Assembly: GCA_964016885.1 (NCBI GenBank)
Contig: OZ024742.1
Coordinates: forward strand, 194,246,001 to 194,310,000
DNA length: 64,000 nt
Source: Eledone cirrhosa
Lineage: Eukaryota
Direction: 5' to 3'
Below the pieces are notes generated by a model. The model made no database searches and was not told the DNA's origin. It saw nothing but the letters and a program-made list of their open reading frames with translations. The number at the start of each line of letters is the position of its first letter. Position 1 is the first letter of the stretch. The position numbers and the translations under genes were made by a program. This document shows positions 5,720-59,205 of this stretch, one piece after another.

Positions 5720-6590
5720 TGGGAAGTGATCTATTTGATATGTCTCATATGAAATCATACAGCCCATTTTCCACACAATACAATATAGTTAGCACCCCGA
5801 ACGTTTATATTAGGAATATACTCAGATATTTCCTAATATTTGTTGAGCGAGTTGGAATTTGGCCGGAGTATCACTATTAGCTTTCTCCGTTCATGTATTT
5901 ATATATTTACTCTTGGTGCAACAGATATGAACTTTCATGATATGAGGTATGACTCTCTTTGTTTATTTTTATATGAATATTGATTGTTTGTTCTTGTATC
6001 TACTTCTGTTATTTTGCCCGAGAAAATATCTATTTGTGTCATTAAGTGAAGCGCACATATGGTTATTTTTTCATATCCAATTGAGTTCTAAGCACGTGGC
6101 TTGAATTCTTATCAGAATTCAGCGACCTGCGCATGTATTGTTTTTGGAGGTAATCTCCTTCCTTCTATTTTCGAGACAGTGTGAGATTTTCTTTAGAACT
6201 GCTGTACTAACAACCTAGCAACTCCATCAAGCAATGATGGTGATTATCGCTAAATATTGATGTTGATTTGGTTAGCAATATTAATATTATTGGGCACCCA
6301 CTGAAGAATTATAAGAGCCCACTTGTATAAGTATCTGTTAATCTTATACAAGCTTCTACATAAATTGATGTATTTTCACCCAACTTATAGAAATCTTATA
6401 GTGAAACGAGACGTCTGGGAAGTGATATATTTGATATATCTCATATGAAATGATACAGCCAATTATCCACACAATACAATATAGTTAGCACCCCGAACGT
6501 TTAATTAGGAATATACTCAGATATTTCCTAATGTTTGTTGAGTGAGTTGGAATTTGGCCGGAGTATCGCTATTAGCTTTCTCCGTTTATG

Positions 6591-6598
<8 letters not shown>
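5720..6598 (+). mobile_element. 696-nt non-coding hammerhead element with ~180-nt terminal redundancy (retrozyme or mini-Penelope-like)
   Basis: Direct repeat tgggaagtgat...ctttctccgtt at 5720 and 6416. Hammerhead at 6297-6419 cleaves at the repeat start. No ORF; 3' end runs into (TA)n. Confidence 0.85.
6297..6419 (+). ncRNA. type I hammerhead ribozyme with large multibranched stem II; predicted cleavage at 6415/6416
   Basis: Stem I CCCA/TGGG, core CTGAAGA, stem II ATTATAAGA/TCTTATAGT, GAAA, stem III ACG-aga-CGT, GUC site. Inner hairpins CTTGTATAAG/CTTATACAAG and TACAT/ATGTA. Confidence 0.9.
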
Positions 6599-6647
<49 letters not shown>

Positions 6648-6652
6648 ATATA

Positions 6653-7409
6653 TATATGAAAAAAGTTTGTCCTTCATCAGTGATCTTCCAACTATCATAG
6701 GCATTTCATCGCTTTAAAGACCATATACCTCCGGTTGGTGCGAGCAACGACTAAAAAAAGTCGTTGGGACACGTAAATAAAGGGGACGCGAGGGTAAACA
6801 AACAAAATGGTGATGCACTGCTGCTACACCGTCTTTTTCGTTCTATGTATCTTTACCCTTTCTAGCAGTCTCTCTCTCTGTTAGCCTCTTCCTCACCCTT
6901 CACTCACTCATTCTCTGTCACTACCTCTCCTCCTCCTCTTTCTTCTCGTTTGATCTGTGAGTAATTCTTTTCTCTCACATTCTCAGCCAAGCTGGTCGGA
7001 ATTTTTTCTCTCTCGTCTACGATTTCACAGAACTTATGTTTACCGAATTCGCAGACCAGACCCCTTCTTACTCCCGTTAGACCTGTGCGAAATTCCTTCC
7101 TTGCTCACATTTCAACCAGGTTTGATGGTCTTTATTCTTTCGTTCACGATTTCACCGAACTTAAATTCATAGAAATCTGGGACTTGTCTCCTTCTTCCTC
7201 ACTTTCTGTTGCTTCACCATTTTGTTTGTTTACCCTCGCGTCCCCTTTATTTACGTGTCCCAACGACTTTTTTTAGCCGTTGCTCGCACCAACCGGAGGT
7301 ATATGGTCTTTAAAGCGATGAAATGCCTATGATAGTTGGAAGATCACTGATGAAGGACAAACTTTTTTCATATGTAACCCATTTGCAACTCCGCAGCGCC
7401 CTTATTATC

Positions 7410-15400: not shown

Positions 15401-15454
<54 letters not shown>

Positions 15455-15665
15455 TTTCTGAATTTGTTTAGCAAGATTCTTTATCTGAAATCGTGTGTTG
15501 AAACCGATATTGTTATACTTTGGGAGGGTCATGTTGCCAATAAGAAACACACGCACCAGTTGCTTTCACTTCAATTTAATTTAATATATATTTATAAATT
15601 TACAAATTTATAAATTTCTGGTTGGTTGGTTGGTTCCACAACCAGATAGTTGTTTATATATATAT

Positions 15666-15710
15666 AGTCATAGTTCTTTCGTCACACACTCTGTGACCTC
15701 TTCAGTGACT
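15666..15710 (-). ncRNA. minimal type I hammerhead in the Penelope pLTR
   Basis: Minus strand: AGTCA CTGAAGA g GTCACA-gagtg-TGTGAC GAAA GAAC TA TGACT, same sense as the ORF. Confidence 0.85.
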
Positions 15711-16006
15711 GGGGATTTCTTTCTTCGTTTCTGTGCCTTTCCTTTCTTCTATCCTACGCCATTTTGTTTGTGTGTGGGTTGCGTGCTCAGTTTGCGCATG
15801 CGCCACATCCGGGTGTCTGTGTGTGTTTGTGTTCATTTTTCTATTTTTATATTTATATTTGTTTGTTTATTTATTTATTTATTGTTGGTTGGTTGTTTGT
15901 TCTATGTGTGTGTGTGTTTTCATTTTGTCTTGTGTGTGTTTTCATTTTGTGTGTGTTTTCAATTGTAAGTTGTTTATATATGTGTGTGTGTGTTTTCATT
16001 TTGTCC

Positions 16007-16504
16007 TTAATTGTAAGTTGTGATGTTGCTGTTCCACTCATATTTTCTATTTAATTTTGGTTTTAATTCTTTTATGCTTACTGCCTCTGTAATTTGCCTA
16101 AACATTGCGTCTTTCTTGTGTGTGGATTCTATTTTTATTTCTATGCTCTCTAATTTACCCCTGTGTTCTATCTTAGCATGTTGGTAGAGCACAGATGATT
16201 CTTTACTATCTTGGAGGTCTCGCCAGTGTTCATTTATTCGTTCCCCTATACTACGAGCTGTCTCACCTATGTACACTATATTTTTGTTTCTACATTGTCC
16301 CTCAGTACATCTTATGCTATATACTACATTTCTAGTTTTACAGTTAATATGGGGGCTTATTTTACAGGTTATACATTTCTTATCTATACATGAGGGTCTT
16401 TGGAACGGGTATGTCTTGCTAATAAGTGTTTTTACGGAGGTACCAGGTCTTTCTACTATCTTAATATTGAGATTATGTTTCTTTAGGGCCCTTCTAAATT
16501 TCAC
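16007..16504 (-). CDS. Penelope-type GIY-YIG endonuclease domain (fragment)
   Basis: CxxxxCxxC linker, VVY..YIG, R..EH, E..I..PKLN motifs. Confidence 0.85.
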   Translation of the reverse strand: MKFRRALKKHNLNIKIVERPGTSVKTLISKTYPFQRPSCIDKKCITCKISPHINCKTRNVVYSIRCTEGQCRNKNIVYIGETARSIGERINEHWRDLQDSKESSVLYQHAKIEHRGKLESIEIKIESTHKKDAMFRQITEAVSIKELKPKLNRKYEWNSNITTYN

Positions 16505-19353: not shown

Positions 19354-19424
<71 letters not shown>

Positions 19425-19426
<2 letters not shown>

Positions 19427-19521
19427 CTCTGATACTGGTTCAGTCTAATCCATTCGGATTGGTTTGTCCCAGTTATTCATAGAGCAACATCGGTTAAGGT
19501 TGGCACCATTAACTCAAGGAT
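19425..19521 (+). mobile_element. fragment of the 591-nt hammerhead element
   Basis: agctctgatactggttcagtctaatccattcggatt..ggcaccattaactcaag matches 34165-34260 and the reverse complement of 27768-27861. Confidence 0.8.
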
Positions 19522-19745
19522 TATTCCACATATATATAAAAATCATGTTTTTCCACATATATATAAACATTTGGATATATATATTAAAAACGTTTGGAGA
19601 TTTAAAAAATAAAAAATATAAATTTAGACAGTGTAAGTATATCTAAATGAGAGAAGAACTGAGAATAGCGTGGAAGAATAATATATAATGCAGGATTCAT
19701 TACGTTTTATTTATAATACTTATAATAATAATTAAATATAACCTC

Positions 19746-20527: not shown

Positions 20528-21494
20528 TCAGGTTATAAATTGGGTGTTGAGTTCTAGTCTATTATTGATAGGTGGTTGTGTTTTATCTATAATTAGTGCT
20601 TCCTTAATTCTAAGATTGCCGAGGTTTCTTTCCTTAGTTTCTATCCTAACTGTTATGGTTTTGTCGGTGTTTTTGCATTTAACTAGGTGTTTCTTAAATG
20701 AGGAAGCGTTAGTATTGAGGTGTTCTTTTATTCTTATGTGGAATGGTCTTGTGGTGCTACCTACGTAGAAGTTGTTGCATTTGTCACACTCTAGTCTGTA
20801 TACGACGTAAGCCTGGTGGCATAGGTCTGTGTCGTTGATGGGGCAGTTGGCTAGTCTGCAGCAGTTGTCATGTCTGGTGGAGTGTCTTTTAGCTAACTGT
20901 CCGCGCAGAGAAGGACCTGAGTGGGCCAGTTGGATATCTAGTCCTTCTCGTCTGATGGCTCTGCGGATGGCTGTTGTTGTTTCTTCACTGAAGTGTGGGA
21001 GCTTCAGGAAGCAAGTGTTAGTGCCTTGGGTGTGGTGTCCTCTGTTCTTTCTGGCACGGTTTGTGGTGGATGTCGTGTATCCGTTCAGTTTGAGTACTTC
21101 CAGGAAATGTGTGGAGTGTGTGTCTCGGTCTCTGGCGTCGGTGCATTTGTTCCGGATACGTGCCAGTTCGTTCCTTATGTATCCGAACTTGGCACCAAGT
21201 GGGAGGGCCGATCTGAAATGTACGAACAGGTCCCTGCTGACGGCTTTTTTATAGAAGCAGGTGTGGATGTTGCCTTCCTCTGTTACCCTGAGTTGGAAGT
21301 CCAGTAGGGATAGGGATCCGCGGTCATCGGGGTGTTCCATGCTGAAATTTATACTGGCGTCCATGCTGGAGAATGTTGTGTACATTTTATCCGCCTCCCC
21401 ACGGGATGATGTGAGGATGCGTATGTCATCTACATATCGGGTGAAGAAGGCATGGGAATGGCAGGTGTTGAGGGCTCGGCATTCTAGCTGGTTC

Positions 21495-21496
<2 letters not shown>
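20528..21496 (-). CDS. Penelope-like RT (YVDD to thumb) plus GIY-YIG endonuclease, C-terminal 322 aa
   Basis: FTRYVDD, SLSLLDF, YKK..HFRSALP, VVYRLECDKC..YVGSTTR..RIKEH, KEALII..PPINNR. Confidence 0.9.
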
Positions 21497-21576
<80 letters not shown>

Positions 21577-27373: not shown

Positions 27374-27626
27374 GGGGTAACAAATTATTGTTATAGGTGG
27401 TCCACTTAAGTGTAGTCCAGTTATGGTACTCCGGGTAGTGGAAGATATCAACGCTTGGCCAAGTTTGACTCAACAAGGCGTTTCCATAGTGATGTTGCGA
27501 GTACGCTGTAATTCCTATGTTGTAAACACTTGGTGTAACGATAAATCAAGAAAGAAGAGTGACACGGTTTGCTATACAAAAAATGTTTTTAATCTCATTG
27601 CTGACAATTGTTTCTCTGAACTGGTA

Positions 27627-27699
<73 letters not shown>

Positions 27700-27704
<5 letters not shown>

Positions 27705-28196
27705 ATATAGAGAAACACACAGATACATGCGGACACATACATATACATGAATATATCCACATCCATCCCTGAGTTAATGGTGCCAACCTTAAAAGATGTT
27801 GCTCTATGAATAACTGGGACAAACCAATCCGAATGGATTAGACTGAACCAGTATCAGAGCTATAAAGTACATTATGAAGAGAGAAGAAACATTAGATATA
27901 ATTAGTAATAAGATGTATCATATCTAAACTGCTTCTAAATTCCTCGACTACGTAGTTTCGTGGCATAAGCTAAAACAATACATCACAGAGATATAGAATG
28001 TTTACGTGTTTTGAAACCCTTAATGAGGTATCCTCTTGATAAGTCGGCAGACCTCACAAAAATTCTATATCTCTGTGATGTATTCTTTTTCCTTATGCCA
28101 CGAAACTACGTAGTCGAGGAATTTAGAAGCAGTTTAGGTATGATACATCTTATTACTAATTATATCTAATGTTTCTTCTCTCTTCATAATGTACTA
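27700..28196. mobile_element. two-armed inverted insertion of the 591-nt hammerhead element
   Basis: Minus arm 27700 to about 27990, plus arm about 27995-28196; inverted identity between 27866-27989 and 28062-28195; (TA)n on both sides. Confidence 0.9.
28031..28120 (+). ncRNA. type I hammerhead with U3-A8 core, extended stem II and GUC site (28115)
   Basis: TCCTC TTGATAA GT(c)GGCA..TCACA..TGTGA..TGCCAC GAAA CTACGTAG TC GAGGA. Confidence 0.85.
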
Positions 28197-31100
28197 TATA
28201 TATATATATATGTATATATTGACACTAAATATAATTGTGTGTATAAAATTGAAATATGTCATAGTGTCCGCCTCTCGATCTCTTCTTGAATTAGCTATTC
28301 TTCCTAGAGCGTCAACATTACCCATATAACATGATTAAATGTAACATAGTATTGACATAATTATAATTAGGTGCAAAAATCGATCACATAAGGACTTATA
28401 CGTGGCACTTCTTTTCTCCTTGTCAAAAAGAAATATCAATGTATTGATTCGCTTTGCTTTGTTGTCATTTGCTATGGGCTGTGTGAGAATACGTATGTTT
28501 TAAATAGAAGTTATCTAATGCATTTTCAATTCAATTAAAATATACATATCAGTTGAATATATCTAGCATCTATTGTCTCTCCGTTGTGAAGAAATTAAGT
28601 GCCGTCAGATTGTACAATTACATGGCTTGTTGTTCTAGTTCAGTGCACACTCAGATCAAATCCCACCGAAGTCAACTTTGTCTTTCCATTCTGTCATAGC
28701 CTAACTTATGTAGAGGACGGTGAATTGGTGCAATTTTTATAGAGTCTGACGTGATGATTTCCATTATCTACTCCGTTCTGAATTCCAATTCCACCTCATT
28801 CTGCAAGAAGTGTAACCCACAGATTGTATCAGCAGTATAGCGACTAATTGAATGAGTGTTTCTATTGTCGAATTTGACAATAAAATATTTTTATTTCTAA
28901 GGAAAATTATTATTAAATTTAATGACTCCTTGTCAGTTTTCAAAACGATTTTGGGATGTCAATTTCAAGGAAACAAGGATGCGCTTTGTAAAATTGAGGT
29001 TTCTACTTCATAAAGGGATTTTCTTATATCTTAACCGAAAAAATTCGCTAAATTCATTGAATTTTTAATTTTTAATATGATGGAATGTAAGGTATATTGT
29101 TAAAGACCAATACAAATATGCTTTCACGTAGTGTATGTATTGTAAGAGTGATACGGAGAAGTGGGGTTTAATCCTTCAATAATATGAGCAGAGGTAACGT
29201 AGGCGGCTGGTATTCACAAGATACATATTTAAAGTAGATATAACAGTATATATATCAAGGGTAAATATTCAGGTATATAAAGATATATGCCTATATAATT
29301 CCAATGTAATTGGAATCGAAAAGATATTGTGATAGAACATGTTGAGAAGAATATAATTAATTAATATTTAATGTTTGCCTTGTTTTCTGCATTGTGTATG
29401 AATGTATTCATATATGCGTTTGCGTGTGTATGGATGTGTGTATTGTGTGTGTATGTGTGTATGTGTGTGTGTGTGTATGTTTATGTGTGTGTGAATAAAA
29501 CTTATACGGAATCACAATTTCGTTCTCCAAAATCAATGGTGATATTAAGATGCATTATATTATATTTAATAGGTCCTACTAATAATATGCATTCCGCCTC
29601 CACATGAATAATTCTGATATTAACTGTGTATTTATCTCAAACGAAAACAACTTTACTGCTTAAGAGCTTACGTTATCTACCATCAGTTATGAAACAGAGG
29701 ACTTACTAAAGCGTTTATTTTGTATAGGTGAAGGACAGTGGTTTAATGTGAACGCTGTTCAGTTCATGATGGTAAGACCGCTATTCCGGACAGGCTAAAG
29801 CATTGTGTCCTTTTCAAGTTGCTTTAGTCCGCTCAACTAGAGAAAATGAGTTGTATCACTAATTCAAGGGGTCTGCCTTGTTACCCACGTGTCACGTTGC
29901 ATCTTCTTAAGAGCTACGTTACATGTGCACATTTCACGGGAATATTTAGCTACTTAAACGTGAATATTTAGCTACTTTCACGAAGAGGCTGTTCTGTCGT
30001 TCGAGGAATTGTAGTACTCGACGCCGAAACAGATATAGACCCGGTTATTTTCTATTGATTAAAAACAGTAGGAAATGAAAACTCTGCAATTATTTACGAT
30101 GCCTATATGGCAATTTCGTTGATTTATATTCAAAACTATAAGATGATAAATTGAGTGGCGAGTTTCATTTTCTTATGAATTTTGATTATTTCAAACTTTA
30201 GGATATATTTTTTATTGATAATAATTTGACATTAAGTAGATAAGAACTTAAAAGGAGAGAATATTATTTATTTACAATGTATAAGAAAATCATGTCAATA
30301 ATCAAACAAATATTCTATGAAGTTTATTTTCCATGAGTAAATATGATAACCCTAGATTTTTTTTATCATTGATTATACATTCAAATCTGCGGCTACTACT
30401 GCATATATTTATGAACCAATTGAGTGTTATTGTTTTATGCGCCGGATGAGACCTAGTTCCGTAGTAAAATAAATCTAATGAACAGCACATGATGTTTTTG
30501 TTTTTGCATTTTAAAGATTTTGAATATATAATACTAAGATTTCTTCGATAAAAAAACATGTGCATGATCTTTTTGTCGCATAGCCAAGTGCATAAGGGGT
30601 TCGCTTTGCAAGCATTATATCCTAAGTTTGATTCTACTGTTTGGTATATTGACCAAGCGTGGTTAAACATACTCTGCAGTCGACCCATGATTTCTAGGTG
30701 AAATTGTGTAGACGGAAACTGTTTGGAAGCCAGGGTGAATGTACTGTACCAGCAATCCAAAGAGCCAGATTTTTCACACACACAGTGTCACTCTAAGCCT
30801 GCCTCATAGTCACGTTAAGGGTAGACTGGTCTCTGAAATGCTCAGTAACTTACATGACAATTTCAAGAGCAGGCTGCTCCGGTGATCAAAATACTGGAAC
30901 AATCTTCGTTGAAACCGACGGTGATTCATTCCATGTGTACATGAGCAGTGAGATGATATGCAGAATACGATATTGTTTCAATATCGCTTTTCCTTTTAAA
31001 TAAAGTGATATGTTGATCAAATAATCCTAAGAGGGCATGGAATGAAGCTAGATAATATGTTTGAGTAGAGCGCTTATACAGACCTAAAATGCGTTCCAGC

Positions 31101-31844
31101 AGAGTATTGGTTTTTTTGTTACCATTCCACAATCCCCTCTATTCATTAAAATGCCACCGGGGCTTAAGCACATCACATTATTTAGAATCCGGCCATGATC
31201 TATTAGCATTAGTAATAACATACCGTTTTATGTTTAAACGATACACAGACGATCCTCTCCAGTTGATGTTTATTTGCTTTATATGCAAGTGAAAATATTC
31301 AACCAATGTTCCGGTCGAAAAAATATATAAAAGCTATATGGTTTTGATTTCTCGATAATGAGTGATGGAACGTCACCGATGATGGATAAAAATACAGACA
31401 CATGTGTCTGGGGCTCTCACACGTCTTCAGATATAATGAGAGATGATCACAGCTAAAAGCTTTCATAACTAGATATTTCAATGTGAATTGTGCGTAAAAA
31501 TATCTTATATGGCTTCCTATTAGTTAATCGTAACTTGCCAACCTCGCACCATATGTGAATAGGCATCACCAACCAATGTTCGGTTTGTAAAATATTCAAA
31601 TGAGAACGCACATCTGGTGTTTCATTGGCAAGAGTGCAAATGAGATATAGTTTATACTTTTCTCATTACCCAATGTAAAACAGCACCAATTACGGAAAAA
31701 TAATCTAAAACAAGCATGCTAGATGCTCTAAACACGGCTACTGAGATGGCAGAAATCAGGATTACAGCTTAAAATATCCGTAGCTTCTCTAGTTAATATT
31801 CATTGACATACAATATATGCATTCATACTCATTTCCATTATATA

Positions 31845-32674
<830 letters not shown>

Positions 32675-32689
32675 GAACCATGTATATAT

Positions 32690-32896
32690 ATAACGAACCA
32701 TGTGGTAAGGAACCATATGGACCATAACGCACCAACGTACTCAATACTTAGGGTAGTAGAGTGGGTAATAGGAAAAAGTATGACCCAGACGGCCGAGCTC
32801 AAGCCTATTCGACGGCTAATTCTGGACTTCTAATTGTCGACGTCCAGAATTAGCCGTCGAAACGGCTTGAGCTCGGCAATCGGGGTCATACTTGTT

Positions 32897-32900
<4 letters not shown>
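32690..32900. mobile_element. small fold-back element (arms 32768-32827 and 32841-32901) with a tail on the left
   Basis: ataggaaaaagtatgaccc..ggctaattctggac versus gtccagaattagcc..gggtcatacttgttcctat. Confidence 0.8.
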
Positions 32901-32949
<49 letters not shown>

Positions 32950-33020
32950 CATTATGAAGAGAGAAGAAACATTAGATATAATTAATAATAAGATATACCA
33001 TACCCAAATTCCTTCTTTAC

Positions 33021-33113
33021 TCCTCAACTACGTAGTTTCGTGGCATATTATGCAAAAACACTACATCACAGAGGTATAGAATTTTTATGAGGTCTGCCGA
33101 CTTATCAAGAGGA
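33021..33113 (-). ncRNA. U3-A8 hammerhead (GUU site)
   Basis: Reverse complement reads TCCTC TTGATAA GTCGGCA..TGCCAC GAAA CTACGTAG TT GAGGA. Confidence 0.8.
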
Positions 33114-33611
33114 TGCCTCATGAAGAGTTTCAAAACTCGTCGGAGGACGCGAGATAGAATCCCGAAAGGCGGAGGGGGAGTCAATCACGTGATACAGCGG
33201 TCAAGAAACAGAGATAAGCCTCTTATAACCATGAAAAAAATACCACGGAGGCGGAGAGGGTACTTATATCATAGCCGTAGAAGAGGTGGCTAAGTGGGCG
33301 AGAAGTATGAGTAATGATAGCTTTCCAGCTGTCACTACACTTCAATGGTTATTCTACAAAAGGGAGTTATAAACAATATATAGAAACACACATATACATG
33401 CGGACACATTCATATACATGAATATAACCATATATATCTCTGAATTAGTGGTGCCAACCTCAGCCGATGTTGCTCTATCAATAACTGGGACAAAATAATC
33501 CGAATGGATTAGATTGATTCAGTATCAGAGCTATATAATACATTATTAAGAGAGAAGAAACATTAAATATAATTAATAATAAGATATATCATACCCAAAT
33601 TCCTTCTTTAC

Positions 33612-33704
33612 TCCTCGACTATGTAGTTTCGTGGCATATTATGTGAAAACAATACATCACAGAGATATAGAATTTTTGTGAGGTCTGCCGACTTATCAAG
33701 ACGA
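33612..33704 (-). ncRNA. U3-A8 hammerhead (GUC site, one stem I mismatch)
   Basis: Reverse complement reads TCGTC TTGATAA GTCGGCA..TGCCAC GAAA CTACATAG TC GAGGA. Confidence 0.75.
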
Positions 33705-33993
33705 TACCTCATTAAGTGTGTTTCTATATATTGTTTATAACTCCCTTTGGTCGAGTAACCTTTGAAGTGTAGTGACTGCTGGAAAGCTATCATTACTCAT
33801 ACTTCTCGCCACCCTAGCCACCTCTTCTACGGCTTTGATATAAGTACCCCCTGCGCCTCCGTGGTATTTTTTTCATGGTTATAAGAGGCTTAGCTCTGTT
33901 TCTTGACCACTGTATCAAGTGATTGACTCCCCTTCCGCCTTTCGGGATTCTATCTCGCGTCCTCCGACGAGTTTTGAAACTCTTCATGAGGCA

Positions 33994-34086
33994 TCCTCTT
34001 GATAAGTCGGTAGACCTCACAAAAATTCTATACCTCTGTGATGTAGTGTTTTTGCATAATATGCCACGAAGCTACGTAGTCGAGGA
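33994..34086 (+). ncRNA. U3-A8 hammerhead with A15.1G substitution
   Basis: TCCTC TTGATAA GTCGGTA..TGCCAC GAAG CTACGTAG TC GAGGA. Confidence 0.7.
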
Positions 34087-34482
34087 ATAAAGAAGGAATT
34101 TGGGTATGGTATATCTTATTATTAATTATATCTAATGTTTCTTCTCTCTTCATAATGTATTATATAGCTCTGATACTGAATCAATCTAATCCATTCGGAT
34201 TATTTTGTCCCAGTTATTCATAGAGCAATATCGGTTGAGATTGGCACCACTAATTCAAAGATATATGTGGATATATTCATGTATATGTATGTGTACGCAT
34301 GTATCTGTGTGTTTCTATATATTGTATATATATATATATACATATATATGTGTGTGCGTGTGTGTTTATGTGTGCCTGTGTGTGTGTGTGTTAAGTCACT
34401 TCCCCTACAATATCAACCGTAAAACTAATAATATATCTCTTCATTGTACTGTGTCGTTTGCTTTATTATTTATGTTTGCCTA

Positions 34483-34524
<42 letters not shown>

Positions 34525-43607: not shown

Positions 43608-45836
<2,229 letters not shown>

Positions 45837-47270: not shown

Positions 47271-50200
47271 TTGAGTCTCAGTCATTGATGTTATTTAACT
47301 GGAAAGTTTGTTGAAATGAATATCAAGCCCCTACATGCAGCCTCAGATATTCAGGACGTATCGGAGGTTCTTGCTGTTCGCAGCAAGCATGCCTTTTGAA
47401 GTGTTCCAAAAAGCGGAGCTGGACTAATCTTCTTTAACCATCCTTGGAAACTCTTTGAGATAGTACCTAGAGCGCCTATGACAATCGGGACGACCTTGAA
47501 TTCATGGCAATTCCAAATCCTTTTTTACTCCCACTTTAAATACTGGTATCGGTTAATTTTCTCCCTCTCCTTTTCTTGCACTCTCGTGTCGAATGGGCAG
47601 GCTACATCTACAATCAGGCACGATCCTTTTTCCTTGTCCAAAACCACCAGGTCTGGGCTATTGTCTTCTAATTTCTTGTCCGTCTGTATCCTAAAATCCC
47701 ATAGCAGCTTCACCTAATCGTTTTCTATCACCGACTCTGGCTTTTGCTCATACCACTTCTCAGAGTGTGGTAAATTGTTTACTTTGCATAGGTGCCAGTG
47801 GATCACCCTGCCCATCATGTCATGTCAGCCTTTATAGTGAGTCTGGGCAAGGTGTTTACACTCGGATACAATGCGAGCCACAATCTCCTCTCTCTCTCCA
47901 CAGATCCTACAGAGTGGACTAGCCTCCTCCTTGTAAATATGGTGTTTCACCCACTTCGTCTATCAACATCACTCCTCTTGTGGAACATGTAGATAGTCAT
48001 TAGCTTCCTAATCTTCTTATCCATTTCTTTCTCTTCAGCAACATTCCATCTCAGAATTCCCGCACTGTATCTAATAATAGACACAGCTCGGGAATTTACT
48101 GCACTTGTGGCATTCCTACTATTTAGATGTGATTTTAATACGCTCCTTACTCTACTAATGCACTCAGATCATATCAATTCCTTTATTTTTTTTTGTTCTT
48201 GATGTCATCAGCCTCCAGAACAGCTAAATATTTGTATGCTTCTATAGTGTCAATTTCCTTTATCATCTCACCTGTTGGATTCCGTTGCTACTGCTTAATT
48301 TACCCCTCTTCATCACTTGGACTCCACAATTATTAATACCAAATTGCATACATATATCATTGCTGAAAATACGGACAGTGTCAACAAGCACATCCAACTC
48401 CTTCTCACTCTTGCCAAAGAGTTTAAGATCGTCCATGAAGAGGAGGTGATTGATGGTAAGCTCTCCTTTTACCAACTTGCATCCTGCTCTCACATTTCGC
48501 AGTATAATGGTCAGGGGTATCAGGGCAAGGACAAACAACAGAGGGGACAAACTATCTCCCTGGAAGATACCTCTCTTGATCTTCACGCCTCCCAAGGATT
48601 ATCCACCCGATGTAAACTCTGTTTCCCAGGACTTCATATTTTTGCTCAACAACTGTCTGATGTTATCTGCCACCTTGAAGATCTCTAGGCTTTTGGTTAT
48701 CCAAGAATGAGGTACATTGTCGAATGCCTTTTTGTAGTCTATCCATCCCATGGCAAGACCAGTTTGTCTCCTCTTGCAATTCCTCATTACCATCTTATCA
48801 ATAAGTAACTGGTCCTTTGAACCACGGGACTTCTTTCGGCATCCTTTCTGTTCGTCCGGTAACAAGTTGTTTGTGTGGAGGTGATGGTAAATTTCTTCAG
48901 GCACAATGCTTCTCAACAGTTTCCATATTACGGACAGACATGTGATAGGTCTATAGTTGGTAATATCATTACCCTTGATTCGGTATTTCATTACCAGAAC
49001 TGTGGTACCTTTTGTCAACCACTCTGGAACCTCACCTGACATCAAGCAGTCATTGAACATTGTTGTCAATTTCGAGTGGAGGGATGTTATATTTTTAATC
49101 CAATACTCCTGCACACCATCTTGGCCTGGTGATATCTAGTTGGTTACTTTTTTTGGCCTGCCCCTTAAGATTTTCAACTGTGATACTCAAATCAGTTTGT
49201 TGGTGTGCCTGTTCACTAATCTCCTTTTGTACTGTCTCAATCCACACTGCCTGATCATTATGTTTAACATCCTGTTCCCATATTCCTCTCCAGAATGTCT
49301 TAGTCTGTTCCGCCTCAGGGATCAAGTCGTTGCCTCTTTCTTTCTCCTCAAGCTGTCCAAACAACATCTTGTTGTTGTCAAACTACATGTTTTCTAGTGT
49401 ACCATTCAGTAGGGACTCAAGCTTTACAATGTCATTTCTCATTTCCCTGATTTGACCATTCAGTCGTTTCTTCCACCAAGGTTCTGATCTTTGTTGTTTG
49501 TTGTTTCCTCTCGCTTTTATGCCCAGTAATTTCCTCACCGCGTTTGCTGTTGCTTTGAGGATATTGTTGCATTGGTGAAGGTTCCTCGTCTCAAGGTATG
49601 GGATGACTTTGTTTACCTTAGCTGTTGTTTCTTTTAACTTTTTCCTGTCTACAAATCTTAAGTTCATAGGTTTCCCACTATCATTGTTCATTTCATCTAC
49701 CACTAAGTTTAGGATATCAACCAAATCTTGTCCTAGCCCGTCAGCATTCATTTCTTCAGTGGCCGTATATTTGTTCCAGGTATTATTTATTTCAGCATTC
49801 AGATCATTGTCTGCTTTGGGTGCTTCCTCCGTTCTCTCAACCTCTTCACCTTCATTTCCCACTGGCTCGTTTGCCTGGCATACTCCACTCTCCATTTCCA
49901 ACCTAATCTCTCTGCTCAGTTCCTTCAGTTCCAGCTCGCTTATCCATCCATTAGTTCTTATTACACGAGCCTGTCCGGCCAATTTTTGTTCATCTAATTT
50001 AAATAGACCAAACTCGTTCCAGATGTTATGCATCCGTTTCCTATAGCCTTTTTCATTGGGTTTACTCTTCAGGTAACATTGCATAACAGTTCTATTCAAT
50101 TCTTTCGTCCAGTTGGTTCTGGTCCCTTTCCTTTCTTCCTACCAGCAGTATTTGGATGACAATCAGGTCCCTGCTGCTGGTCCAGGGAGCACCTGCTGGG

Positions 50201-51305
50201 TGGGAGTCTGTCACATGACGTTCAGTCTCCACTTCACCGTTATTCGAACTGTTTAATTCGACATTTAAACACTCATATTGAGGATTGGTGAATGTATGGT
50301 TACATAGCCACCAGTGATTCATCACCCCCAGTGGTTTGATCACCCCCGGTGATTTTAGCGTGGCACTATCAGGCTGTAGACGAACATAAAAAAATAAACA
50401 AATAAATAGTTAAAAACTTTAAAAAATAAACAAAAGTTTCATTGTAATGTTTGAATGTCTGACTTAGTTTTTTTGGTTTGTTTTTTTTTTTTTTCGTTTT
50501 TTTTTCCTTCTCTTTACGGTTTTCGTTGCTGCTGTGCTGTTTTGATTTTAGCTTCATGCGATGTAGGGCTGTTGCGTTCAAAACTTTTGAAATTTGTTTC
50601 AACTTGTTGCTTATCATTATTATTATTATCAGCCAAGGTTAACCTTTCCCTCCATCCCCAAGGGGTCGATAAAACAAAGCACCAGCAATGCACTGGGCAA
50701 TTGCTGGCCCTGCGCCTCAAAAAATAGGAACAATTATAAATATTATATTATACTTTAAGTTTGACATCGTTTAAACTAAACACTTTGAGAGAGTTTTAGA
50801 GATACAGCAGCAATAATGTTGTTGGTGTCGTTGTTGTTGTTGCTTCTGACCGGGTCACCAAATCAGTCTATTTATATCTTTTGTTACCTTCCTCACTTAG
50901 TGGGACTACTACTACTATCCCTCTGTCTTAAGAGGAGGTAGTGGGAGAGAATAATGGTAGCGATAATGATCCAGTGGTGGTGGTGGTGATGTGATAGTAG
51001 TACTGTAGTGATGGTGTTGAGGTAAACATTGGTTTGGCTTGATTTTTGGCGTGTGGTAGTGTTGATGGTGACAGCGGAGGTGGTGGTGTTGGTGGTGAAA
51101 CTACTTGCCTGTTGTTTGTAGCCATGTAGCCAATTTTTTTGTTTTTACTATAACATTTCTGATACAAAATTAAATATTAAATATTGGGGCCCTATGCCAT
51201 AATGTGATGCGTTGTCACTTCATGAGAGTAAAACTGTAATCTTATGTTCTATTTCTAATAAGAATTATTCTATCACAATTGTTTTAAGTACGTAAAAATC
51301 AAAAA
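47271..51305 (-). mobile_element. R4/Dong-type non-LTR retrotransposon copy A, decayed with internal deletions; SINE A in the leader at about 50633-50735
   Basis: ORF fragments homologous to 54739-58131 (YRPITCL, KAFD, FQGDSLSP, FMDD, PDLVV). The 3' end abuts (TTA)n; the leader is homologous to 58130-59160. Confidence 0.9.
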
Positions 51306-52906
51306 CTTACAGTTTCTGTTTCAGTTCTTTATTTGCAGTTACTTTTACCTGCTTTGCTTTTTCTGTGTTTTCCATTTCAGCAGTAAATGGGACTTCTGAA
51401 ATTTGTAGTCCATTACTGTATCTTTGTGCATCTTTTGTAATGGAATATGATCTTTTGATGCTTTCGTGTTTCAAAACGAGTTTGATCATCCAATCATGTG
51501 ATTCCCTTAGATATGTAGATAATCCAATTGTTGCAGTTTTCAACGCAATGTCTAACTGGATTAACCCACGTCCTCCTTCTTTCCTAGGGAGATATATTCT
51601 ATCTATATCTGCCTTAGGGTGATGCATTCTGTGCATGGTTAATTATTTTCGAATTTTGGTATCGAGCCTACGGATCTCTGTGGTTGACCAGTTGATGACA
51701 TTGTAACTGTAGGTTATTACTGGTATGGCAAGCGTGTTTATGGCATCGATCCTATTCCTTGCATTCAATTCCGTTCTTAAGATTGCTCTTACTCTGCGGA
51801 AACATTCCTTCCTTATCCTTTCCTTCATTGTCGAGTGCTTGATTCCGTCTCCTTCACAAACACCTAGATATTTGTAAGTTTTTTCTTGATCAAGTTCTCT
51901 TATCACGTTCCCCCGATCAAGATTAATGTCTGAACTCTTCAGCAGCTTTCCTCTGGTAAACGTTGCTTTGGCGCATTTATCTAGTGCAAACTCCATTTTA
52001 ATGTCATCACTGAACTGCTCCACAGTGGATAATAGCCCTTGCAATTGTTCATCATTTTTTTGCAAATAGTTTCAGGTCATCCATGTAGAACAGGTGGTTA
52101 ATGGTTTTGTCATAGACTTTATATCCATGTTTTCTATCATTGAGCATTTTACTTAATGGTATAAGCGCGATGCAGAATAAAAGCGGTGATAAATAGTCAC
52201 CTATCGAATGCTTTTTTATAATCTATCCAAGCAATCGATAGATTTTTGTGTCTATTATGACAATCTTCCAGTATCATTTTGTTAACCAGAAGCTGATCCT
52301 TACAGCCATATGAGCCTCGTTTACACCCTTTCTGCTTAATGGGAAATAGGTCATTTGTTATCAGGTGGTCATATGTGTATTCAGTTAGGACTGATGTTAA
52401 AATGTTATACATTGTGGTCAAGCAAGTTATCGGTCTGTCATTTTTGGGATTGTTTGTCTCATCATTCTTCGGAAGCAGGAATGTAATGCCGTTAACTAGC
52501 CATGATGGTATCTTTTCTGGCTCCTTAACTATTTCATTGTAAAGATGGGCTAACAGCACATGAGACTCTGTGAAGGCATTTATCCAACAGTTTTGTATTT
52601 TGTCTTTTCCTAGGAATTAACATTTGCTGGTTTTTCTTAGAGCCAAGCGCAACTGTTCAACTGTTATATTTTCCCATATTTGTTCCTCAAGGTGAGCTGT
52701 ATCTTTCATTTGTCTGTCTATCCATGGGGCATGTATGTTATGAACTTTTTCTTCGGCCCAGATCTTTTACCAGAATTCTTGCACTTCCTCCTTGGGTGGT
52801 ATTGATTTAGCAGTTATTGTTGACTTACCAATTTTTCTGTAGAAGTTTCTTTGGTTGTTTTTGAATATATTATTGTCCTTATAGAATCTAGATCGTTTTT
52901 CAAAGC

Positions 52907-52908
<2 letters not shown>
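51306..52908 (-). pseudogene. second R4/Dong-type family, RT region only, frameshifted
   Basis: RPITCLTTMY, QKGC..KDQLL, WIDYKKAFD, YKYLG, RIYLPRKEGGRGL; sequence clearly distinct from copies A-C. Confidence 0.85.
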
Positions 52909-52971
<63 letters not shown>

Positions 52972-54630
52972 GTTCTTTGAGTCTCAGTCATTGATGTTAG
53001 TTAATTGGAAAGTTTGTTGAAATGAATATCAAGCCACTACGTGCAGCCTCAGATATTCAGGACCTATCGGAGGGTTCTTGCTGTTCCCTGCAAGCATGCC
53101 TTTTGAAGCGTTCCAAAAAGCGTGAAGAGGCCAATTTTCTTTAGCCATCGCTGGAAACTTTTTTGAGATAGTACCTAGTGCGCCTATGACAATCGGGACC
53201 ACTTTGACTTCATGGCAGTTCCAAATTCTTTTTAGCTCCCACTTTAAGTCCTGGTATCGATTAATTTTCTCCCTCTCCTTCTATTGCACTCTCGTGTCGA
53301 ATGGGCAGGCCACATCCACAATCAGGCACGATCTTTTTTCTTTGTCCAAAACCACCAGGTCAGGTCTATTGTGTTCCAGTTTCTTGTCCGTCTGTATCCT
53401 AAAATCCACAGCACCTTCAGCTGATCTTTTTCTATCACCGACTCTGGATTATGCTCATACCACTTCTAAGAATGTGGTCAATTGTTTACTTTACATAGGT
53501 GCCAGTGGATCACCCTGCCCATGGCATCATGTCTACAGTCCTTATAGTGAGCCTGGGCTAGGTGTTTACACTCGGATACAATGTGAGCCACAGTCTCCTC
53601 TCTCCACAAATCATGCACAGTGGGCTAGCCTCCTCCTTGTAAATATGGTGTTTCAACCACTTCGTTTTGAGGGCCTGCTCTTGAGCAGCCATTAACATTC
53701 CTTCTGTAGCCTTTTTAAGGTCTCCTCTTTTCAACCAGTTCCATGTCTGTGGATCTCTGAATTTAGTTTTCTCAAAGAAGGTACTATGAAGGGATTTTTC
53801 CTGAAGGCTGCTCTTTCTCCTTGTTGTTATTTCCTCCTTGAACATCCCCTGGTCTATTGTCCTCTCCTTCAGTACAGTTCTGAGCATTGGCTCCTTACAA
53901 TCAGTCACGTATTTGTGTAGGTTGTTTTTCTCCATCTGATCACACTCCTCTATGCTGATAAGACCTCTTCCACCTTCAGCTCTCCTTAAGTAGAGTCTAT
54001 CGACATCACTCCTCTTGTGCAACATGTTGTAGATAGTCAATAGCTTCCTACTCTTCCTATCCATTTCTTTTTGTTCAGCAACATTCCATCTCAGAATTCC
54101 CGCACTGTACCTAATAATAGACACAGCTCGGGAATTTACTGCACGTATGGCATTCCTACTGTTCAGATGTGACTTTAATACGCTCCTTACTCTCCGAATG
54201 TATTCAGTTCTTATCAATTCCTTCATTTTTTTGTTCTTGATGTCATCAGCCTCCAGAACAGCTAAATACTTGTATCCTTCTTCAGTGTCAATTTCCTATA
54301 TCATCTCACTTGTTGGTACCTGGATTCCGTTGCTTCTGCTCAATTTACCCCTCTTCATCACAAGGAATCCACACTTACTAATACCAAATTGCATACATAT
54401 ATCTTTACTGAAAATACGGACAGTGTCAACAAGCACATCCAACTCCTTCTCACTCTTCCCGAAGAGCTTAAGATCGTCCATGAAGAGGAGGTGATTGATG
54501 GTAAGCTCTCCCTTTTCCAACTTGTATCTTGCTCTCACTTTTCGCAGTATAATGGTCAGGGCATCAGGGCAAGGACAAACAACAGAGCGGAGAGACTATC
54601 TCCCTGGAAGATACCTCTCTTGATCTTTAC
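52972..54630 (-). mobile_element. R4/Dong-type copy B, 5'-truncated, (TTA)n on both sides
   Basis: ORF fragments 54296-54538 and 53558-54226; same 3' UTR as copies A and C. Confidence 0.9.
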
Positions 54631-54661
54631 TATTATTATTTTTATTATTATTGTTATTGTT

Positions 54662-57600
54662 ATTCCTTGAATCTCAGTCATTGATGTTGGTTAACTGGAA
54701 AGTCCGTTGGATTGAATATCAAGCCACTACCTGCAGCCTCAGATATTCAGGACGTATCGGAGGGTTCTTGCTGTTCCAAGCAAGCATGCCTTTTGGAGCG
54801 TTCCAAAAAGCGTGAAGGGGCCGATTTTCTTTAACCATCCCTGGAAACCTTTGGAGATAGTCCCCAGTGCGCCTATGACAATCGGGATCACTTTGACTTC
54901 ATGGCAGTTCCAAATCCTTTTCACCTCCCACTTTAGATCCTGGTATCGGTTAATTTTCTCCCTCTCCTCCTCTTGCACTCTCGTGTCGAACGGGCAGGCC
55001 ACATCCACAATCAGGCACGATCTTTTTTCTTTGTCCACAACCACCAGGTCAGGTCTATTGTGTTCCAGTTTTTTGTCCGTCTGTATCCTAAAATCCCACA
55101 GCACCTTCACCTGACTGTTCTCCATCACCGCCTCTGGCCTATGCTCATACCATTTCTCAGAATGTGGTAGATTGTTTACTTTGCACAGGTGCCAGTGGAT
55201 CACCCTGCCCATCACATCGTGTCTCCAGCCCTTATAGTGGGTCTGGGCTAGGTGTTTACACTCGGACACAATGTGAGCCACAGTCTCCTCTCTCTCTCCA
55301 CAGATCCTGCACAGTGGGCTAGCCTCCTCCTTGTAGATATGGTGCTTCAACCACTTCGTTTTGAGGGCCTGCTCCTGCGCAGCCATTAGCATTCCTTCTG
55401 TAGCCTTTTTGAGGTCTCCTCTTCTCAACCAGTTCCATGTCTGTGGATCTCTAAATTCAGTTTTCTCAAAGAAGGTACTATGAAGGGATTTTCCCTTAAG
55501 GCTGCTCTTCCTCCTTGATGTTATTTCCTCCTTGGATATCCCCTGGCCTACTGTCCCCTCCTTCAGTACAGCTCTGAGCATTGGCTCCTTACTATAGGTC
55601 ACGTATTTGTATAGGTTGTTTTTCTCCATCTGAACACAGTCCTCTATGCTGATAAGACCTCTTCCACCCTCAGATCTCCTTAGGTAGAGTCTATCGACAT
55701 CACTCCTCTTGTGGAACATGTTGTAGATAGTGAATAGCTTCCTAGTCTTCCTATCCATTTCTTTTTGTTCAGCAACATTCCATCTCAGAATTCCCGCACT
55801 GTACCTAATAATAGACACAGCTCGGGAATTTACTGCGCTTATGGCATTTCTGCTGTTCAGATGTGACTTCAATACGCTCCTTACTCTCCGAATGTATTCA
55901 GTTCTTAACAATTCCTTCATTTTTTTGTTCTTTATGCCATCAGCCTCCAGAACGCCCAAATACTTGTATCCTTCCTCAGAGTCAATTTCCTTTATCATCT
56001 CACCTGTTGGTATCTGGATCCCGTTACTTCTGCTCAACCTACCCCTCTTCATCACAATGACTCCACATTTACCAATACCAAACTGCATACATATATCACT
56101 GCTGAAAATACGGACAGTGTCAACAAGCACATCCAACTCCTTCTCACTTTTCCCGAAGAGCTTAAGATCGTCCATGAAGAGGAGGTGATTGATGGTAAGC
56201 TCTCCCCTTCCCAACTTGTATCCTGCTCTCACTTTTCGCAGCATAATGGTCAAGGGCATCAGGGCAAGGACAAACAACAGAGGGGACAGGCTATCTCCCT
56301 GGAAGATACCTCTCTTGATCTTCACGCTTCCCAAGGATACTCCAGTTGATGTCAACTCTGTCTCCCAGGACCCCATACTCCTGCCCAGCAACTGTCTGAT
56401 GTTATCTGCCACCCTGAAGACCTCCAGGGTTTTGGTGATCCAGGAATGAGGCACCATGTCAAATGCCTTTCTGTAGTCTATCCATCCCATGGCAAGATCA
56501 GTGTGTCTCCTCCTGCAATTCCCCATTACCATCTTATCAATAAGCAACTGGTCCTTTGTACCACGTGACTTCTTTCGGCATCCTTTCTGTTCGTCCGGTA
56601 ACAAGTTGTTTGTGTGGAGGTGATGGTAGATTTCCTCAGACACAATGCTCGTCAACAGTTTCCACATTACGGGCAGACATGTGATAGGTCTATAGTTGGT
56701 AACATCATTACCCTTGATTCGGTCTTTCATTATCAGAACTGTGGTACCTTTTGTCAACCACTCTGGCACCTCACCCGACACCAAGCAGTCATTGAACATG
56801 GCCGTCAGCTTCGGGTGGAGGGATGTTAAATGTTTAATCCAATACCCCTGCACACCATCTGGGCCTGGTGATTTCCAGTTGGTTAGTTTTTTGGCTTGCC
56901 CCTTAAGAGTTTCAACTGTGATACTCAAATCAGTCTGTTGTTGTGCCTTCTCACCGATCTCCCTCTGTACTGTCTCAATCCACCCTGCCTGGGCATTGTG
57001 TCTAACATCCTGCTCCCATATTCCTCTCCAGAATGTTTTAGCTTGTTCCGCCCCAGGGATCAAGTCGTTGCCTCTTTCTTTCCCCTCAAGCTGTCCAAAC
57101 AGCATCTTCTAGTTGTTGTCGAACATGCGGTTCTGTTTATACTGACTGACTCTGTTCTCGTATCGCCTGATTTTGGCACTCTTTGCTACAATGCGTTGCT
57201 TCAATTCCTCTATGATAATATTTAGCTTTTTACTCCTAGTTTTGTATTTTATTTCCAGTCTATTTTTAGTGCCTATGTTTTTTAGTGTCCCATTCAGTAG
57301 TGACTCAAGCTTTCCTATGTCATTTCTCATTTCCCCGATTTGCCCACTCAGTCGCTTCTTCCACCACGGCTCTGCTCTTTCTTGTCTGTTGTTTCCTCTC
57401 GCTTTTATACCAAGTAGTTTCCTCACCGTATTTGCTGTTGCTTTGAGGATATTGTTGCACTGGTCAAGACTCCTCGCCTCAAGGTATGGGATGACTTTGT
57501 TTACCTTAGCTGTTGTTTCTTTTAACTTTTTCCTGTCTACAAATCTTAGGTTCATAGGTCTCCCACTATCATTGTTCAATTCATCTACCACTAGATTTAG

Positions 57601-59205
57601 GATGTCAACCGAATCTTGTCCTAGCCCGTCAGCATTCATCTCCTCAGTGGCCGTATCTCTGTTCCAGGTATTATTTATCTCAGTATTCAGATCATTGTCT
57701 GCTTCGGGTGGTTCCTCCGTTCTCAGGACCTCCTCACCTTCATTTCCCACCGGCTCGCTTGTCTGGCATACTACACCCGCCATCTCCAAGCCATTCTCTC
57801 TGCTCAGTTCCTCCAGTTCCAGCTCGCTTATCCACCCATTAGTTCTTATTACCCGAGCCTGCCCGGCCAATTTTTGTTCATCTAATTTAAATAAACCAAT
57901 CTCGTTCCAGATGTTATGCATCCGTCTCCTGTAGCCCCTCTCCTTGGGGTTACTTTTCAGGTAGCATTGCATAACAGTTCTATTCAATTCTTTCGTCCAG
58001 TTGGTTCTGGCCCCTTTCCTTCTTCTTCTTCCTCCAACATCAGCAGTATTTGGTTGACAGTCAGGTTCCTGCTGCTGAGCCAGGGGGCACCTGTTGGGTG
58101 AGAGTCTATCACATGACGTTCTAGTCTCCATTTCACCGTTATTCGAACTGTTTATGTTCGATATTTAAACACTCTTATTGAGGATTGGCGAATTTATGTT
58201 TACATAGCCATCTGTGGATCCGCCATCCCACTTGGCCCTTGTGTGGCATTATCACCACGCTGTATACGAACACACATAAACAAACAAACACACGGGCAGA
58301 AAGGGCCCCAAAAATGAATAAGCATAAGTTTCATTGTAATGTAGTATTCGAATGTCTGACTTAGTTTTTGTTTTTTAAGTTTTACTTTTTCCCCCTTCTT
58401 CTCTGTCCGTCCGCCTGCTTCTCTCTTCATTCTTATTTTCTTTACGTTTTTGGGGTTTCTTTTTTTGTTTTTGTTTTTCTCTGTTTGTTTTTCTCGTTTT
58501 TTGCTGTTGTTGCTGTACTGCTTTGGTTTTGTTGTTTGTTTTTTCTTTTTTCTTTTGAGTCTATCTATATATTTTGATGCCTTCCTCTTTGTTAGTAGTA
58601 GGGATTCTATAATGTGGAAGTAGTAGCAGCCAGCAGGGAGAAGTGGGAGATTGGCGGCGTTGGCGATACTGAGACAGTGGTGGTGGTGATGTCGATACCG
58701 AGGCAGTGGTGGCGGTGATGCGACCGTATTACTGTAGTGATGGTGCAGTAGCGGTAGCAGCAGCAGTGAAGGAGTCAAGGGGTGGTGGCGGCGGTGATGG
58801 GATAGTGGTGGTAATGATGGCCGTAGTGAGCGGTGGCGGTGAAGGTGAAAATGCTGTTGTGTTTAGTGTACACAGATGATGGGGTGGGTGGTGTATCTAG
58901 TTTCTGGTGTTGGTGAGTTTAGCTGTCCTATATAGTGTAGCCAGAGGAGAGGAGGGGGGGGGGTTCTTCTTCTTCCATTTATAGCCATTTTTTTTTTTGG
59001 ATATACAGTGTACAATACAAAGTTGAATATTTGAATATTTGAGCCTTATAACAATATATTTTGGGTCCGAATTTTTTGGGGCTCAAGCCGGGTGCTTTAC
59101 GTAGCATTTGTACTAAGAGTTGTTATTTCACAAATGATTTAAATATGTTAAAAATTCAAGGAGCGATTTCATGACCTCCGTCACCTCGTGCGTCTTCTTC
59201 CCATA

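Follow-up and report, generated by a model that had tools for sequence, protein, structure and literature searches.

Which kind of element left an inverted pair of hammerhead-bearing arms between positions 32941 and 34325 of the window, i.e. the whole stretch of 64,000 nt analysed, and by which route did it arrive there? A preliminary description, made from the letters alone, had read these arms as a permuted tandem repeat of a retrozyme-like family. Both the hammerhead and the class were borne out, the latter within the non-LTR retrozymes derived from Penelope-like elements (PLEs), while the Penelope-type anatomy of the insertions had been overlooked. The 591-nt unit is probably a non-coding, non-autonomous retroelement mobilised by a PLE's reverse transcriptase and GIY-YIG endonuclease. 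Its class is best read as the one that includes the animal non-LTR retrozymes, a kind already known, to which it adds a new family.

Arrangement of the 591-nt unit

Positions within the unit are given as q (window position minus 33713), numbered along the right arm. Both arms aligned without gaps to a doubled 591-nt unit, which agrees with the period described before, and the left arm was identical to it at 734 of 779 positions. The left arm (32941 to 33716, minus strand) consists of 1.3 units head-to-tail and is 5′-truncated at q269. Read along the minus strand from 33716 down to 32941, it runs from q269 to q612, wraps to q22 and continues to q453, where its 3′ end lies in a (TA)n target sequence (32899 to 32946). 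The right arm (33716 to 34325, plus strand) consists of one 591-nt unit and a further 19 nt, with its 5′ end at q594 (equal to q3) and its 3′ end at q612 in (TA)n; this end enters a TA-rich microsatellite at 34326-34349. As had been stated, the plus arm begins and finishes with the same sequence, a segment of 19 nt (34307-34325, plus strand) that has its second copy at 33716-33734 and marks the wrap of the unit. The right arm is inverted relative to the left over 454 nt with 95% complementarity, and the two arms of this one repeat meet head-to-head at 33716, both 3′ ends pointing outward into (TA)n.

Two further loci were found in the window. Locus 2 likewise has two arms ending in (TA)n: a left arm (27700 to 28003, minus strand; q308 to q612), which carries only the 3′ half of a ribozyme (27941-28003), and a right arm (28004 to 28200, plus strand; q254 to q453). 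Locus 3 (19420 to 19521, plus strand; q448-549) starts at (TA)n, has no ribozyme and shows 3 differences in 96 nt from the left arm of locus 2. The four complete ribozyme copies had been listed correctly before, but the 3′-half copy and the ribozyme-less piece had been omitted. Locus 3 stops at q549 in an apparent short local inversion of the next 19 nt, which are present twice (19521-19570).

The 5′ ends of the five pieces vary (q269, q594, q254, q308 and q448), and none of the five falls on the predicted cleavage site. The 3′ ends of the four arms, by comparison, occur at two places only, twice at q453 and twice at q612, all four in (TA)n. At both two-armed loci one arm stops before and the other after a tail of 159 nt (q454-612; 34167-34325 on the plus strand of locus 1). 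An inverted 5′-truncated partner together with a one-sided tail, the anatomy of PLE insertions, was thus present at both two-armed loci, and a partial tandem at one of them. The wrap junction is present in both arms of locus 1 and, within the window, at this locus only; locus 2 has no wrap.

The unit is non-coding, has a GC content of 38-39%, is arranged head-to-tail and contains one type I hammerhead. No ATG-initiated ORF of more than 72 aa overlaps 32941-34325, where nine ORFs of at least 40 aa occur, so that the earlier statement of no credible ORF held. No ORF remnant was found in any of the six frames of the unit, and an ORF for reverse transcriptase and GIY-YIG was not found. An Arg-rich ORF of 57-68 aa on the opposite strand of the unit was not regarded as a gene. 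Introns are retained by PLEs, and a 64-nt stretch at 34104-34167 (plus strand; q391-454) looks intron-like when read by eye, with a GT start, a branch-like motif, a pyrimidine tract and an AG end. The short arms stop one base before its last G, its pyrimidine tract doubles as the 3′ arm of a predicted hairpin, and the GT is missing from one copy.

Hammerhead ribozymes

Four complete type I hammerheads (28031, 33021, 33612 and 33994) were found in the window; in each, the core is of the U3-A8 form and the 10 nt of stem III, which precede the cleavage triplet, are palindromic. In agreement with the preliminary description, all four complete copies have the core TTGATAA, a stem I of 5 bp and an extended stem II, with 59-62 nt between the core boxes. 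The only fully canonical copy lies at 28031 to 28120 (plus strand) and has a GUC triplet, an intact palindrome and 59 nt between the core boxes. The copy at 33994 to 34086 (plus strand; core 33999-34005, predicted cut after 34081) carries G15.1 (34071) and, in helix II, a U in place of C. Two successive motifs occur in the left arm: in the one at 33612 to 33704 (minus strand) a pair of stem I is mismatched (33702) and the palindrome of stem III is broken, and the one at 33021 to 33113 (minus strand) has a U at position 17 (33026) and is otherwise intact. The predicted cleavage sites of these two, 33617 and 33026, lie 591 nt apart, as had been noted. One altered copy had been described before; in fact three of the four complete ribozymes are altered, and the minus strand of 33000-33720 holds two of these. 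A Watson-Crick pair at 3-8, G12 A13 A14, A15.1-U16.1 and H17 were all found at 28031 and 33612, and also at 33021, there with U17; at 33994 position 15.1 is G, where reads have A.

Reads of run X6 carried the canonical letter at each altered site, i.e. 230 of 230 reads at 33026, 46 of 46 at 34071 and 172 of 172 at 33702. Since reads of a related genome have the canonical letters, the alterations at these three sites are local decay. The U3-A8 core is described here for the four copies in the window; the 40 of 351 read differences listed include none at positions 3 or 8.

A 16-mer across stem I and the core occurred four times at no more than one mismatch, compared with a chance mean of 0.06, and none of 100 shuffles reached four; a hammerhead descriptor gave 0.07 matches per shuffled window. 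Chance resemblance to hammerheads is excluded by these two counts. Rfam hammerhead models were absent from all 37 matches at E values up to 10 within 27600-34500 and from the matches listed for the whole window (150 of 170). Two-box matches at two loci in metagenomes were attributed to chance; by eye, they lie in bacterial-looking DNA and have neither stem I nor helix II pairing.

Predicted folding

Helices I, II and III can form, with constrained folds of -12.6 to -17.5 kcal/mol. The structure cells were paired in 97.3% of cases, compared with 39-53% when slid, for a structure derived from these same sequences. In all four single copies the hammerhead fold lay 1.1-3.2 kcal/mol above the minimum-energy fold. 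None of 41 pairs changed on both sides among five close copies, 88-97% alike. The palindrome alone is predicted to form no stable hairpin (0 kcal/mol) and, as a 10-bp duplex, to reach -12.9 kcal/mol. These calculated values are as expected of a dimeric ribozyme and support the earlier suggestion that palindromic stem III permits dimers.

Compared with shuffles, the ribozyme strand folded with z-scores of -4.0 and -4.7 as a 591-nt circle and of -5.2 as a linear molecule, while the reverse strand gave -2.3 and one flanking control +1.4. A hairpin of 20 bp is predicted directly past the cleavage site (34091 to 34145, plus strand); five of its pairs vary on one side only and none on both.

A pseudoknot is also predicted at 28024 to 28056 (plus strand), where the 5′ flank (28024-28029) would pair over 6 bp with the internal loop of helix II (28051-28056). 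In all four copies 5-6 nt just upstream of stem I can pair in this way with the loop after the proximal part of helix II. Among random 10-mers of the unit, pairing of 6 bp arose in 0.6% and of 5 bp in 3.7%, in a test devised after the pairing had been noticed. The same arrangement with other letters was seen in an unrelated element at 5720-6597 (5 bp, expected in 4.9% by chance) and was missing from both short-helix ribozymes of the window (2 bp). A pseudoknot between the flank and helix II is plausibly a known device and not a new one: according to PMC3088659, about 40% of hammerheads have a pseudoknot that joins stems I and II.

Occurrence in sequencing reads

Five runs contained the stretch, each with at most 0.34 of its words, and reads were compared at 80% likeness. 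Three runs of organism A covered the unit in 30 of 30 bins and one run of organism B covered the stretch in 23 of 30. The covering reads were mostly less than 95% alike to the window. Because runs of two organisms cover the unit, mostly by such diverged reads, the repeat is a dispersed family of many copies, as the earlier proposal of a family beyond these loci had implied. Summed read depths are not copy numbers, and most read records derived from a neighbouring repeat at 32700-32900.

The (TA)n joined to 33376 (q609) was observed in 144 reads with 10 starts in X6 and in 144 reads with 11 starts in X7. The presence of this joint in both raw-read runs indicates that the 3′ end at q609 recurs elsewhere. 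Three further joints, 33946/34260, 33971/34260 and 33230/34211, had few starts each; joints follow from the 80% threshold, and several had a single start. These three are interpreted as head-to-head pairs with 5′ ends at q547/q233, q547/q258 and q164/q498, and two of them may represent the same locus. In organism B, two contigs span the wrap junction, the short side being 19 letters only.

Other elements of the window

The window is AT-rich and full of microsatellites and retroelements. Next to the left arm, at 32680-32901, another head-to-head pair (134 nt, 85%) lies between (TA)n runs, one arm being 70-90 nt longer. This pair was far deeper than the 591-nt unit in all runs compared, and is probably a second, very abundant TA-targeting family.

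The unrelated element at 5720-6597 (plus strand) is a partial tandem with a period of 696 nt, in which 5720-5905 repeats at 6416-6600 (94.6%). It contains a C3-G8 type I hammerhead (6297-6419) with 95 nt between the core boxes, has its 3′ end in (TA)n and folds as a circle with a z-score of -3.5. In this one copy the 5′ boundary coincides exactly with the base that follows the predicted cut, suggesting that a ribozyme had cut the template.

A GIY-YIG PLE that has a Cys-rich linker is represented by two 3′ fragments (15453-16504 and 43657-44803, both minus strand), each carrying a short C3-G8 hammerhead (cores at 15705 and 43921) about 220-230 nt from a (TA)n end. A 5′-truncated PLE ORF, comprising the end of the reverse transcriptase and GIY-YIG, abuts (TA)n at 20528-21498 (minus strand); the best of 12 matches to its protein, and the only one with a named organism, was 60% identical and came from Octopus bimaculoides. 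Judged by this one mobile gene, the host is likely to be a cephalopod. A long inverted repeat at 6660-7370 has arms that stop at TA runs just past a CTGATGA half-core, where a second core box was not seen. Also, a near-complete non-LTR retrotransposon with a reverse transcriptase frame of 789 aa occurs at 54739-58164 (minus strand), with decayed relatives at 47300-54700. A near-perfect hairpin of 125 nt (2802-2926), matched by Rfam miRNA models below their cut-offs, is probably a small inverted-repeat element.

Comparison with known systems

The earlier reading of U3-A8 as a compensatory pair is supported by the natural U3-A8 covariation reported in 2011, for which activity in vitro is cited (Perreault et al. 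2011, PMC3088659). In Schistosoma PLEs, a U3-A8 descriptor is reported to have found about 1,300 such motifs, with opposite-strand pairs 100-700 bp apart (PMC4209133). Ribozymes of this kind had been called invisible to CUGANGA searches, and Rfam does miss them, but in view of the Schistosoma motifs a variant that is new or concealed from the field is not supported. The activity of those motifs is described as low even in dimers, and minimal PLE ribozymes as cleaving weakly (PMC4209133).

The hammerheads of PLE pLTRs, such as Cercyon of S. mansoni (U3-A8) and a Drosophila virilis variant, resemble those of the unit in U3-A8, a 5-bp helix I, G10.1-C11.1, a helix II bulge, a palindromic helix III and opposite-strand pairs 100-700 bp apart (PMC4209133). 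Their helix II is given as 7-8 bp with a short loop and their palindrome as 4-6 nt (PMC4209133), whereas the unit has 59-62 nt between the boxes, a palindrome of 10 nt and a predicted 5′ flank pseudoknot, and no adjacent ORF for reverse transcriptase and endonuclease was found. A 10-bp dimer stem from a palindromic stem III is likewise described for repeat-type hammerheads of Aedes aegypti (PMC3088659). Pseudoknotted hammerheads are treated by Perreault et al. (2011, PMC3088659); here such features are combined with a long helix II extension in one mobile unit.

Partial tandems, an inverted 5′-truncated copy at the 5′ end, a one-sided tail and microsatellite targets are the reported marks of PLE insertions (PMC8557442) and recur here, although the tails reported are of 30-40 bp and the tail here is of 159 nt at both two-armed loci. 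Non-autonomous PLEs with head-to-tail copies are described from Chlamydomonas (PMC8557442). The Hydra-clade PLEs (Craig et al. 2021, PMC8557442) share with the unit (TA)n targets, a 4-bp palindromic stem III and a loop of 1-2 nt. According to the supplement of that paper, nearly all of this clade, which has 4-bp palindromic stems III, target (TA)n, and one comes from Octopus; the ribozymes tabulated there are C3-G8 with short loops II, whereas the unit is U3-A8 and has no ORF.

In coral, mussel and axolotl, circular RNAs arise from non-LTR retrozymes whose units measure 170-400 nt (Cervera and de la Pena 2020, PMC7229834). Retrozyme units are reported to range over 51-972 bp and to be linked to PLE pLTRs, and in vitro cleavage was seen for one predicted dimer of nine (Li, Clavereau and Pollet 2026, bioRxiv 10.64898/2026.07.22.740005). 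That preprint counts a retrozyme as active when complete ribozyme motifs stand in two units in succession; the left arm has two such successive motifs, one of them with the stem I mismatch and the broken palindrome. The unit resembles the metazoan non-LTR retrozymes in being non-coding, low in GC and head-to-tail, with one type I hammerhead and a well-folded monomer; its 591 nt lie inside that range and a PLE origin is proposed for both. It differs from them in its PLE-type variant ribozyme, theirs being canonical, in its inverted partner arm, in being longer than the circle-making units of 170-400 nt, in its tandem of 1.3 units and in being known from DNA alone. The literature searched yielded no account of the family, of a PLE ribozyme whose helix II is this long and is predicted to form a pseudoknot with the 5′ flank, or of a tail measuring 159 nt; the variants of Lunse et al., small PLE hammerheads that reportedly cleave as dimers, may include this fold.

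Origin and mobility of the unit

The two fixed 3′ ends at q453 and q612, the variable 5′ ends, the dispersed loci and the strand-biased folding point to reverse transcription. If the unit is a non-autonomous PLE, the hammerhead strand of a tandem copy would be transcribed and would fold, and, as known PLE ribozymes suggest, two ribozymes would pair via the 10-nt palindrome and cut after GUC, probably slowly. Pairing of the 5′ flank with the helix II loop, as a pseudoknot, may keep stems I and II in contact. The PLE endonuclease would cut a (TA)n run, and the two DNA ends would serve as primers for reverse transcription at a pair of TA-rich RNA sites, q448-453 and about q612. Two copies would then end at variable 5′ points and join head-to-head, giving the inverted pair with a one-sided tail of 159 nt that is seen in the sequence. 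The three ribozymes of 32941-34325 have since decayed. The length of helix II, the pseudoknot predicted for it and the pair of putative priming sites are taken to be real details, drawn from few copies and from prediction.

The template was longer than one unit, because the left arm crosses two cleavage sites. It was probably an uncut multimer or the product of a template jump, these two being taken together, and a ligated circle is the less favoured, though still serious, candidate. Classical twin priming on one contiguous template was rejected for the two loci in the window, which would need gaps of at least 140 nt or an overlap; it would suit the three read joints, with their short arms starting inside the tail.

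As mobiliser, a PLE that targets (TA)n seems the best guess, of the Hydra clade by the form of stem III, and this is a lead only. Three GIY-YIG PLE fragments were detected in the window, two above the Pfam cut-off and one below. Against the five PLE ends or other candidate stretches of the window, however, the unit scored no better than shuffles in any case. Six to seven short motifs of the unit had no match in the consensus file for Naiad, Chlamys and Hydra (PMC8557442 supplement), in which line breaks could mask one. The ribozyme of Hydra-1_Obim, as given in that supplement, differs in sequence from that of the unit. Cephalopod Naiads are listed there as targeting (TA)n, two of them flagged as having a half-core. 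A Naiad partner, considered for this reason, was discarded: the 3′ ends of two octopus families were by eye unlike the unit, and the short motifs gave no matches.

The preferred explanation contains within it a stricter model, in which tandem transcripts are cut with high efficiency, the resulting 591-nt monomers build up as circles, and new copies arise by rolling-circle reverse transcription; what this adds is abundant circles, and we consider it possible but rather unlikely. Arms longer than one unit with permuted ends would suit a circular template, as would the well-folded 591-nt circle (z-scores of -4.0 and -4.7), and the retrozymes of coral, mussel and axolotl do yield such circles (PMC7229834). 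The units behind these known circles, however, measure about 170-400 nt and have canonical ribozymes (PMC7229834), whereas minimal ribozymes of the PLE type cleave poorly. Also, 13 of 185 sites differ between the two units in tandem in the left arm, which a single monomer circle would have made identical. Of 16 variable sites, 5 have a derived letter common to the second left unit and the right arm where the first unit keeps that of locus 2, and a single one unites the left units; gene conversion at a later time between the inverted arms, in their outer parts, would explain the shared letters equally well. Further in, 15 of 247 sites differ between these two arms, a level close to the 6-8% of the other within-locus comparisons.

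The copies might otherwise be 3′-terminal fragments, i.e. pLTR debris, of an autonomous PLE; the period would then go back to a single event that placed two truncated copies in tandem, and a non-coding family in its own right would not exist. Other PLE 3′ fragments of the window do have their ribozyme about 220-230 nt from the (TA)n end, compared with 245 nt here, and a 3′ region of similar length, and locus 2 lacks the wrap. This origin is nevertheless improbable, as the identical wrap junction occurs in both arms of locus 1 and in two contigs of organism B (short side of 19 letters), and no ORF remnant was found in six frames. It is more improbable still that the repeat is a satellite or palindrome formed at the DNA level, its hammerhead a fossil or chance match and an RNA stage never involved. 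Such an origin would account for three altered ribozymes out of four, and fold-back of DNA also makes long inverted repeats; but chance is excluded by the 16-mer count and the rate of 0.07 descriptor matches per shuffled window, and the fixed 3′ and variable 5′ ends, the dispersed loci and the strand-biased folding speak for reverse transcription.

A broader view of the non-autonomous PLE reading is speculative, and we think it unlikely to hold as a whole. The host might harbour a group of unrelated non-autonomous Penelope-type RNAs with a long, structured helix II (59-95 nt) and a 5′-flank pseudoknot, missed by Rfam and by short-loop descriptors. Both ends of a cut (TA)n would prime at two fixed sites 159 nt apart on an RNA of more than one unit, and in the second family (5720-6597) the 5′ boundary lies exactly on the predicted ribozyme cut site.

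The unit adds one family to a known class and is a useful case for annotation, its ribozymes being invisible to Rfam. According to PMC8557442, PLE retrotransposition has yet to be set up in vitro, and it is unclear what PLE hammerheads do. Since the family is short, non-coding and inserted head-to-head many times, with two putative fixed priming sites, its copy ends could be counted genome-wide relative to the cut site, and such counts could separate circular from linear-multimer templates. If 5′ boundaries at the cut site proved true across copies, the genome itself would show directly that, in PLEs with an endonuclease, the end of the template is produced by hammerhead cleavage.
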